Shown here in pieces: positions 11,369-12,574 of a stretch of DNA of 64,000 nucleotides (positions within the stretch are counted from its first letter, which is position 1; the number at the start of each line of letters is the position of its first letter). The notes under the pieces are model-generated. The model searched no databases, was not told the DNA's origin, and worked only from the letters and a program-made list of their open reading frames with translations. This DNA comes from Candidatus Aenigmatarchaeota archaeon (GTDB taxonomy: Archaea > Aenigmatarchaeota > Aenigmatarchaeia > QMZP01 > QMZT01): assembly GCA_016932735.1 (NCBI GenBank), contig JAFGCI010000006.1, forward strand, positions 127,144 through 191,143. Direction: 5' to 3'. Both the position numbers and the translations under genes were made by a program.

Positions 11369-11908
11369 CTACTCCACCAAATACTCCCAGCCCGGCTGCC
11401 ATGCCTTCTTTTTTCTCCAATCGCAGGAGATTGCCTGTTCCCAAGTCTTTCCTTTTGTAAGAACTTCCAAAGCCAGTTGCGGGGCTTTGTGGGCGACTAT
11501 TGCAATATTCTTATCCTCATATTTCTTCTTCAGGAACAGGAGAAAATCTGATATCCTGTTCTCAACGTCTTTGAGGCTTTCGCCGTTCGGGAATGGAATG
11601 TCTATATGTTCCTCATATACGACTTCATGTTCGCTGGATTGTTGCAGATCGCCGTAATCGCATTCCCTCAGTCTTTTATCTGCAATGATATCATTTCTGT
11701 CTTTGAATACCAGTTTGGCAGATTCTATCGCCCGTTTCAGATCAGAGCAGAAAACCAAATCGAAATTCTTTCCCTTTATCTTTTCCGAAAGCTCTTTTGA
11801 CTGCCTTATTCCGAGTTCAGAAAGCTCTCCATGAGCCTGACCTGTGGAAATCCCTTTCTCGTTATCGGTTGTTGTCCCATGGACAAAATAAGTGATTCTG
11901 ACAGCCAT
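11369..11908 (-). CDS. Histidine phosphatase (PGM-like) family protein, RHG motif variant VHG
   Basis: YFVHGTT, LSELG..Q, SDLKRA..SA, LRECDYG, PNGES, IVAHKA. Confidence 0.85.
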   Translation of the reverse strand: MAVRITYFVHGTTTDNEKGISTGQAHGELSELGIRQSKELSEKIKGKNFDLVFCSDLKRAIESAKLVFKDRNDIIADKRLRECDYGDLQQSSEHEVVYEEHIDIPFPNGESLKDVENRISDFLLFLKKKYEDKNIAIVAHKAPQLALEVLTKGKTWEQAISCDWRKKKAWQPGWEYLVE

Positions 11909-11954
11909 AATAATAGAAATAATCTAATAATTAAATAAAAAGCCCCGAGCGGGA

Positions 11955-12047
11955 ATTTCAGCGGAGTGTACTTCATCTCTTCTTTTCATGATGAGTAACA
12001 CGTTAGGGAAGCACGAAAGCAGGCTTGCTTCTTTAGCTTCTCTCCGT
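11955..12047 (-). other. 93-nt tRNA intron at position 59/60 (T-loop) with BHB-like splice motif
   Basis: Central helix TTCA/TGAA, bulges AA|A and AT|T, exon helix GCGGG/CCCGC, intron helix CGGAG/CTCCG with one extra C. Confidence 0.88.
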
Positions 12048-12088
12048 TTTGAACCCGCGACCTCAGCGTTACCAACGCTGCGCTCTAC

Positions 12089-12200
12089 TTCCTGAGTTTT
12101 CATTCTTCTTCCACTTGAGTGCTTCTTTGCGAACGCAAATTCAGAAAGACGCAGATGAAATCTGCGTCAATCCGGCCTTTGCTTCTGGAAAGAAGGCCTC
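12089..12200 (-). other. About 112-nt tRNA intron in the D-loop (after position 20) with BHB-like motif
   Basis: Central helix CCTG/CAGG, bulges GT|G and AA|G, intron helix AG/CT; junction ambiguous by 2 nt (112 or 114 nt). Confidence 0.82.
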
Positions 12201-12254
12201 ACCAGGCTGAGCTATCGAGGCATCTTGAACGAGCGTTTACATGCGAGTTTAAGA

Positions 12255-12275
12255 CATTGCACTTTAGTGCACATG
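12255..12275. repeat. Bulged hairpin element, copy 1 (CATTGCAC-TTTA-GTGCACATG)
   Basis: Same arms as 40050-40072 with a different loop. Confidence 0.55.
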
Positions 12276-12316
12276 TAGACGCACGGATTATGGATTATTG
12301 GGCATTTTATTTTAAA

Positions 12317-12574
12317 TTACTTTTCAGGCCTCTGCCAGACAACTTTCCCTTTTTCGAGGACGACTTTTATCCGGTGGAAGGGGATTTCATGCTCTTTCCC
12401 GTCCTCTCCAACGGTAGAAAATGAGAACTTATCGCCTTTTCTTATCCTTATTTCGTCGAAAGGCCGGTAGAATATGTCGTCGGAAACTCTGTCGTAAATG
12501 CCTATCTCAAAATCGTTCGGGTCGAGACTCTCGTCCCATTGTATCTTATTCAGAAGCTTCTGAATAGGAATCAT
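12317..12574 (-). CDS. DUF504 / MJ1316-family small protein (predicted RNA cyclic-phosphate end recognition)
   Basis: LLNKIQWD, IGIYDR, IPFHRI..V...G..VW.R family signature. Confidence 0.85.
   Translation of the reverse strand: MIPIQKLLNKIQWDESLDPNDFEIGIYDRVSDDIFYRPFDEIRIRKGDKFSFSTVGEDGKEHEIPFHRIKVVLEKGKVVWQRPEK

Follow-up and report, generated by a model that had tools for sequence, protein, structure and literature searches.

The window analysed here, a 64,000-nt stretch of contig JAFGCI010000006.1 from a Candidatus Aenigmatarchaeota archaeon, carries a gene for tRNA-Thr(GGU) that is interrupted twice, by intron A in the D-loop and by intron B in the T-loop. We propose, with a probability of roughly three in four, that both inserts are spliceable bulge-helix-bulge (BHB) introns from young, multi-copy and modular families whose members pass as copies from one tRNA gene of this lineage to another, replace each other and are rearranged. 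A previous reading, made from the letters of the window alone (the sequence-only reading), had suggested that the inserts may be small mobile hairpin elements bringing their own BHB, and comparison with related genomes supports this suggestion well. Indeed, the family of intron A (family A) occupies seven tRNA genes of the same genome, at two loop positions, and it recurs in tRNA and 16S rRNA genes of related genera with only its last bases adapted to the host; a segment of intron A with a perfect 9-bp hairpin is missing in one related copy; and intron B is replaced by unrelated introns in close relatives. Neither intron would thus be an old gene-specific sequence or a gene-specific functional RNA.

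The host genome (G000; its relatives are numbered G001 and so on, and extracted loci or contigs bear L numbers) belongs to the Aenigmatarchaeota, a DPANN lineage, and is 90.6% complete, with 1.18 Mb in 11 contigs. The unspliced tRNA-Thr(GGU) gene escapes both ARAGORN and Rfam. Read on the minus strand, it provides all elements of a cloverleaf: a 7-bp acceptor stem, a D-arm, an anticodon arm with the loop UUGGUAA (anticodon GGU) and a T-arm. When both inserts were removed and the exons joined, ARAGORN folded the product cleanly into the cloverleaf of a tRNA-Thr(GGU), and the mature sequence pattern is that of the intron-free orthologues. The mature D- and T-loops were set from these orthologues, and intron boundaries are given to within 1 nt. 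The parts of the gene are:

11941..12221, minus strand: complete tRNA-Thr(GGU) gene, three exons and two introns, with the discriminator U at 11941 and then a T-run.
12202..12221 (20 nt), minus strand: exon 1, with the acceptor 5' strand, the D-stem 5' strand and the D-loop up to G19, placed from orthologues.
12088..12201 (114 nt), minus strand: intron A, in the D-loop at 19/20 or 20/21, the long version of family A (seven genome copies; 78 bits with covariance model R1).
12137..12180, minus strand: 44-nt segment at the tip of the intron A rod, with the perfect 9-bp hairpin (12148-12168), without counterpart in L075.
12048..12087 (40 nt), minus strand: exon 2, with A21 and the D-stem 3' strand, the anticodon arm (GGU), the variable loop, the T-stem 5' strand and the T-loop up to A59.
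11955..12047 (93 nt), minus strand: intron B, in the T-loop at 59/60, family B, with one paralogue and the central BHB helix UUCA/UGAA in register.
11942..11954 (13 nt), minus strand: exon 3, with U60, the T-stem 3' strand and the acceptor 3' strand.

The architecture of three exons and two introns was also found on two independent metagenome contigs (L077 and L078), and exon 2 is 90-98% identical to intron-free orthologues. A structural scan, which looked for a GTTCRA T-arm, a 5-bp T-stem, a 7-bp acceptor stem, U8 and a D-arm, identified 40 tRNA genes in the host genome, among them no second gene with the anticodon GGU. The same scan showed how common interruption is in this genome: 35 genes carry 68 inserts and only five are uninterrupted. 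T-loop inserts at 59/60 are the largest class (31), followed by about 19 anticodon-loop and about 17 D-loop inserts, these two counts being approximate since a few of the 40 parses are misplaced (the T-loop count is unaffected), and by one variable-region insert. Standard finders miss most of these genes, because 35 of them are interrupted at non-canonical sites: ARAGORN reported 6 tRNAs and Rfam 9 above threshold, against at least 40 genes. In DPANN genomes of this kind, such programs thus badly underestimate the set of tRNAs.

The T-loop inserts obey a strict register. In 22 of the 31, the four nucleotides at -7 to -4 relative to the T-stem are all complementary to T54-57, and in 30 of the 31 at least three of the four pairs form, whereas at any other offset four of four pairs were obtained in at most one insert. 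Moreover, this helix covaries, UUCA standing opposite UGAA or UGGA, and UUCG opposite CGAA or CGAG. Judged by their sequences, the T-loop inserts are predicted BHB introns in a fixed register, with a 4-bp central helix, 3-nt bulges and cuts at 59/60. For intron B the motif consists of the UUCA/UGAA helix, the bulges AA/A and AU/U, and the T-stem and CGGAG/CUCCG as flanking helices. For intron A we found by inspection a central helix of CCU/AGG plus one G.A, the bulges GG/U and AG/U, and the D-stem and GAG/CUC as flanks; this BHB is weaker than that of intron B, and the minimum free energy (MFE) fold favours the rod. The inserts are also related to one another: 26 of the 68 match another insert at E<1e-3, against none in five shuffled sets, and 14 (21%) fall into families with identities of 80% or more that extend across tRNA types.

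A recurrent motif was also apparent in many otherwise unrelated introns of this genome, in which CGGAAAGAC is followed by a stem-loop and then by GUCA(A/U)AC (examples: C8:69761-69898, C1:18754-18958, C1:75750-76003, C9:106207-106422 and C11:113552-113759); by inspection it did not fit a k-turn.

Family A provides the clearest evidence of spread. A BLAST search with the gene against its own genome returned seven copies, intron A included, which lie in the D-loops of tRNA-Thr and tRNA-Ala(CGC) and in the T-loops of five genes (tRNA-His(GUG), tRNA-Gly(CCC), one Leu-type, one Ser-type and one further gene). All copies are in sense orientation and within tRNA genes, and the five closest are 90-98% identical over the core. 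The family is a cassette of about 75 nt. It begins with a constant 5' end (U-GAG-GCC and a pyrimidine tract), continues with an imperfect rod hairpin, and ends, 3' of the rod, with a small 3-bp hairpin, a purine-rich tail, CUC and four host-specific bases. These last four bases pair with the host, UGGA or UGAA with UUCA of the T-loop and AGGA with GCCU of the D-loop. Since the cassette brings the intron side of the BHB, just a 4-base match with the host is required.

Covariance model R1, built from 14 copies of the family, found matches in 13 of the 23 genomes of the taxonomic family. G005 has 21 matches, although some of the weaker ones merely echo a copy on the opposite strand. They occupy T-loops, a place immediately behind a tRNA 3' end, and tandem repeats of about 170 nt that each contain a tRNA 3' fragment; the cassette behind the 3' end follows a complete tRNA and is therefore outside any intron (for the repeats and this cassette, L093, C10:18700-19300, and L112, C17:7500-7850). 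In G007, two of the 10 matches fall within a stretch matched by the archaeal small-subunit rRNA model (L094, C4:600-820), and one of these 16S cassettes is inserted between GGAUUAGAUA and CCCGGUUAGUCC, in the conserved GGAUUAGAUACCC region. Decay is also visible: the tRNA-Gly(UCC) gene carries a clean family A intron in L076, and in the host genome the same site holds a different module, followed by the decayed remains of a family A copy. We additionally noted a composite locus in L075 (OMKS01073157.1, 370-490), where exon 1 of tRNA-Thr(GGU) is joined through a single family A cassette to the 3' exon of tRNA-Ala(CGC); either two family A copies recombined or the DNA between them was deleted, or the repeat led to a chimeric assembly.

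Covariation supports the rod of family A. Across 27 sense copies, 91.4% of the cells are paired, and changes on both sides were seen in 9 of the 18 pairs. The covariation score is 0.260, compared to 0.150 in shuffles (reached in 0 of 500) and at most 0.143 when the partners were slid, and a hand-built alignment of 14 sequences gave the same result. Thus, homologues in the genome and in related metagenome-assembled genomes (MAGs), as well as covariation, two of the things that the sequence-only reading had proposed to look for, were both found. Two other structures were considered and rejected. A "distal" fold, in which the pyrimidine tract would pair with the second purine tract and GAG with the 3' CUC, scored about as shuffles did on fixed alignment columns (covariation 0.152 against 0.144). 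Among 21 distinct copies, 20 have a second purine tract complementary to the pyrimidine tract; this count comes from a best-window scan and includes a purine/pyrimidine composition bias, so that the pairing of these two tracts is only suggestive. A purine-purine-pyrimidine triple helix (a mirror-repeat reading) was indistinguishable from the alternative duplex, most tracts being mirrors of themselves.

Intron A is a long version of family A, with the 44-nt segment at the tip of its rod. The copy in L075 has the same flanking stem and a 4-nt loop in place of the segment, the orthologue in G002, a genome of the same genus, carries at this D-loop site a 77-nt family A intron, the short version, whose small tip hairpin is another one, and five paralogues in the host genome likewise have a different short tip. 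A second long version was found in the T-loop of a tRNA-Ser of G001. From these comparisons we read the 44-nt segment as a probable nested insertion. A twintron, with the segment as an independent intron, was rejected: by inspection its borders show no BHB, and the segment lengthens the rod.

The core of the hairpin in this segment is also a dispersed module in other genera. We scanned one genome per prokaryote species for its core (GACGCAGAU, three bases, AUCUGCGUC) and obtained 36 exact occurrences. About half were in Aenigmatarchaeota or archaeal MAGs; the others were bacterial terminators or unrelated long palindromes, and their number is close to the chance expectation, which we estimate at about 17 for 18 fixed bases in 596 Gb. 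In the archaeal contigs the core lies almost always within or beside a tRNA gene. It forms the centre of T-loop introns of about 38 nt (Asp, Ala, Thr and others) and is also found in inserts of the D-loop, the anticodon loop and the variable region, as well as in one 5' leader and one 3' trailer, the orientation being either of the two. Its stem changes in a compensatory manner (pair 3 is C-G, A-U or U-A; pair 4 G-C or A-U; pair 9 U-A or C-G), while the loop is free.

Both introns are more structured than expected by chance, intron B only moderately so. The MFE of intron A is -38.9 kcal/mol compared to -27.8 +/- 3.5 in dinucleotide shuffles (z -3.2; 2 of 300 as good), and that of intron B is -23.5 compared to -16.6 +/- 3.1 (z -2.3; 5 of 300 as good). 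The inverted-repeat arms listed in the sequence-only reading were all recovered on the plus strand, at or adjoining the places where it had put them: in intron A, GGCCTT at 12174 and AAGGCC at 12193, the perfect 9-bp stem with GACGCAGAT at 12148 and ATCTGCGTC at 12160, TTTGC at 12126 with GCAAA at 12135, and CACT at 12112 with AGTG at 12118; in intron B, GAAGCA at 12008 with TGCTTC at 12026, and TCATC at 11973 with GATGA at 11990. As listed, CACT/AGTG leaves a loop of 2 nt; the sterically possible form is a 3-bp CAC/GUG hairpin with a 4-nt loop, which covaries to CCC/GGG in two family A paralogues. The pairing of GGCCTT with AAGGCC competes with the covariation-supported rod and is missing from the MFE fold. 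The hairpins of intron A therefore resolve into the rod of the cassette and the 44-nt segment at its tip, and those of intron B into an intron-internal helix beside the BHB and two apical stem-loops. That the inserts contain no open reading frame (ORF) holds for meaningful ORFs; one mechanical plus-strand ORF (12119-12424) does overlap intron A, and it runs antisense to the neighbouring MJ1316 gene.

Family B comprises intron B and a single paralogue in the tRNA-Ala(CGC) T-loop (C8:62793-62877, 87% identity over 62 nt), which keeps the first hairpin of intron B through one-sided changes and the second only in a shifted register; no match was found in 40 relatives. From 12335 to 12048 the window is matched at 100% identity by L077 (288 nt, comprising the promoter, the leader, exon 1, intron A and exon 2 up to A59), which then continues with an unrelated 64-nt T-loop intron that has only its last 7 bases in common with intron B. 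The flanks of L077 are mosaic, with about 85% identity in the upstream gene and 97-98% downstream, so that the tRNA-Thr(GGU) locus appears to be a recombination mosaic between strains. A third, again unrelated intron of about 150 nt occupies the same 59/60 site in G002 and L078. In five relatives (G020, G009, G003, G036 and G039) the tRNA-Thr(GGU) orthologue is intron-free; in G001, of the same genus, it lacks the D-loop intron and has an insert of just 11 nt in the T-loop; and G018, G004, G032 and G030 show other combinations of introns.

The host genome encodes the enzymes with which such introns could be processed. EndA is a single three-unit protein of 394 aa (C8:59488-60672; L079:1198-2382, minus strand), which aligns over its full length with PDB 4FZ2, the epsilon2 enzyme of ARMAN-2 (E 5.7e-106), and contains two tRNA_int_endo stretches. 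RtcB is also encoded (567 bits). The ARMAN-2 enzyme cleaves a 59/60 intron in vitro (PMC3239211). Epsilon2 EndA was known in 2018 only from Micrarchaeum and Mancarchaeum (PMC5829648), and its presence in Aenigmatarchaeota may be under-reported. We suggest that an EndA of this type would cut both introns from the pre-tRNA and that RtcB would join the exons, the cassettes being tolerated through a portable half-BHB combined with the broad specificity of the enzyme. The T-loop site 59/60, interrupted in 31 of 40 genes, would act as a universal landing site, favoured because the T-loop sequence is nearly invariant. We infer that excision takes place in vivo, that the excised RNA is circularized, which is a reasonable expectation by analogy with other archaea, and that a mechanism of copying operates.

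How the copies are made is the more speculative part. Recombination from strain to strain moves alleles, as the mosaic identity with L077 indicates, but it does not explain the reach of one family into D-loops, T-loops, rRNA and trailers. A reverse transcriptase or a transposase as the driver was rejected, as searches of the host genome found neither. It is conceivable, though we would not call it probable, that family A together with its tip hairpin is a protein-less mobile RNA element that propagates via the tRNA-splicing enzymes of the cell. In such a cycle, EndA would free the cassette and RtcB would circularize it into a small rod-shaped RNA; EndA and RtcB, in reverse or by mis-ligation, would then insert it into a transcript loop that offers four complementary bases, preferably the invariant UUCA of the T-loop, and the inserted copy would subsequently reach the DNA. 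By pairing with one or the other purine tract, the 5' arm might switch the RNA from a stable rod to a form competent for cleavage or ligation and back; both purine tracts track the sequence changes of the 5' arm.

Several observations weigh against the interpretation of the inserts as spreading BHB introns. The covariation counts come from related sequences, and alignment A3 was fitted to the model. The central helix of the D-loop BHB has only three Watson-Crick pairs and a G.A, and the rod of the MFE fold leaves the 3' splice site on an unpaired tail of about 28 nt. The allelic difference with L077 may result from ordinary homologous recombination and not from a fresh insertion. In the 90.6%-complete host genome, neither an RVT_1 reverse transcriptase nor a Y1/HUH transposase (PF01797) nor a clear TnpB was found. 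Moreover, the conservation of the rod and of the purine tail extends across genera and goes well beyond the needs of a BHB, which could mean a function of the RNA itself or of the DNA palindrome. This last point leads to the idea that the introns are kept because the excised RNAs act in trans, as C/D-box or other guides or as stable circular regulatory RNAs. It would account for the conservation, with covariation, of the family A rod, the pyrimidine tract and the two purine tracts in at least eight genera, beyond what EndA recognition needs. Nevertheless, the box C/D guide reading of introns A and B was rejected: on the sense strand RUGAUGA, the C box, occurs in none of the 17 D-loop and 31 T-loop inserts of the host genome, both tRNA-Thr introns included, and neither of these has a C/D motif pair. 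The antisense strand of intron B contains AUGAUGA without a D box, and the CUGA at its 3' end, which is GUGA in the paralogue, is accounted for by BHB pairing. Rfam detected no group I or group II intron or other family, only a tRNA-Met passing its gathering score over the whole window, and over 11800-12400 nothing better than E 0.77, which is sub-threshold noise. Finally, the introns are absent from the orthologous tRNA-Thr of several relatives (five being intron-free), family B was found in the host genome and in none of 40 relatives, and in a close relative the same site holds a different intron. The proposal of stable circular or guide RNAs made in the sequence-only reading was not supported by these comparisons, and we consider a trans-acting role improbable. 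Guides may exist elsewhere in the genome: RUGAUGA is enriched in its anticodon-loop introns (5 observed against 0.27 expected; examples are C1:18754-18958 (minus), C3:37068-37266 (plus), C11:57630-57838 (plus) and C11:113552-113759 (plus)), some of which also have CUGA and a second C'-like box and are candidate box C/D guide RNAs.

The disruption of tRNA genes has previously been proposed as a means of resistance to integrating elements, and the introns could be retained for such a benefit to the host gene, by interrupting the integrase attachment (att) sites in the T-arm and anticodon arm or by adding a processing checkpoint. The interruption of so many genes at one T-loop site would fit, but a benefit of this kind leaves unexplained the cassettes in 16S rRNA and in tRNA trailers, as well as the sharing of intron sequences, and not just positions, between genes. 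We doubt that it is the reason for the inserts, and it is compatible with the spread of BHB introns rather than an alternative to it. A last possibility is that split-tRNA genes became fused and that the inserts, instead of being copied elements, are what remains of their trailers and leaders. Similarity between leaders and introns is the classic argument for the interconversion of split genes and introns, and a two-hairpin module in the leader of the tRNA-Thr(GGU) gene indeed recurs within T-loop introns of three other tRNAs. On the other hand, the module also occurs in plain intergenic DNA and so has the look of a dispersed repeat, no split tRNA halves were seen, one and the same family sits at D-loop and T-loop positions and in rRNA, and the intron-free orthologues point to gain and not to ancestral splitting. 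Such an origin seems very improbable to us.

The surroundings of the gene comprise the following features, both on the minus strand:

12222..12276, minus strand: 5' leader with the two-hairpin repeat module (a GUGCAC-UAAA-GUGCA hairpin, then a CUUGA...UCAAG hairpin).
12308..12316, minus strand: TATA-like box TTTAAAATA, read from the sequence, directly 3' of the stop codon of the upstream MJ1316 gene.

The TATA-like box is kept in L077 and partly kept in L078. Upstream lies a gene for an 85-aa MJ1316 domain protein (12317-12574, minus strand; RNA cyclic-phosphate end recognition, E 5.4e-22), a neighbour that is retained in G001, G002 and L077, and downstream a gene for a protein of the histidine-phosphatase family (11369-11908, minus strand; E 8.8e-29). 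The T-loop introns that contain the leader module are those of tRNA-Asp, tRNA-Gly(UCC) and tRNA-Ala(UGC), and the module is also present in the tRNA-Ala/23S rRNA spacer and in intergenic DNA of the host genome (sites at C7:199295-199319, C8:73759-73780, C1:96219-96239, C1:96793-96850, C5:14124-14159, C3:55555-55573 and C3:4517-4535).

Known systems resemble these introns in part. ARMAN-2 (Candidatus Micrarchaeum acidiphilum) has an intron at 59/60 of its pre-tRNA-Cys(GCA) and a three-unit epsilon2 EndA of the same type (PMC3239211; PDB 4FZ2); its intron, however, has 13 nt and a relaxed hBH motif, and repeat families have not been reported for it. The intron of Haloferax volcanii pre-tRNA-Trp, which according to PMC4090602 encodes a C/D box guide RNA (Singh et al. 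2004, as cited there), is likewise a long, structured archaeal tRNA intron excised by EndA; the introns described here differ in having no C/D boxes, in lying in the D-loop and T-loop and not at 37/38, and in not being conserved in orthologues. Repetitive extragenic palindromic sequences and bacterial interspersed mosaic elements (REP/BIME), and the miniature inverted-repeat transposable elements derived from archaeal IS200/IS605, are similarly short dispersed hairpins with compensatory stems, in either orientation and in non-coding transcribed DNA. In contrast to these, no Y1/HUH transposase gene was found in the host genome, and copies within genes would be tolerated here only as spliceable BHB introns.

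To our knowledge, the only accepted case of archaeal intron "transposition" is that of the Thermoproteales, whose mechanism is unexplained. Their transposed tRNA-intron families were described by Fujishima et al. 2010 (Mol Biol Evol 27:2233), as summarized in PMC4090602, and served as the positive control of a preprint (bioRxiv 10.64898/2026.10.13.758758), whose procedure gives 28.3% in cross-isotype families for Thermoproteales and 1.5% for Asgard archaea. The 14 of 68 inserts (21%) found here, although procedures differ, are of the Thermoproteales order and far above the Asgard value; in both cases introns are absent from orthologues. The present host differs in being a DPANN archaeon with an epsilon2 and not an (alpha-beta)2 endonuclease, in the dominance of one site, T-loop 59/60, in its cassettes, which are 75-167 nt long, rod-shaped and modular, with modules within modules, and in a family that also occurs in 16S rRNA and outside introns. 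All together, our results suggest that this Aenigmatarchaeota lineage offers a second and much more readable case of the spread and swapping of archaeal tRNA introns. Long cassettes give unambiguous homology, the constant part can be separated from the 4-base host-adapted part, family A is found in D-loops, T-loops, rRNA and trailers, and close relatives differ by the clean replacement of one intron. The question of how archaeal tRNA introns arrive may thus be put to the test in natural populations, with metagenomics, and in vitro, with a single pair of recombinant enzymes.

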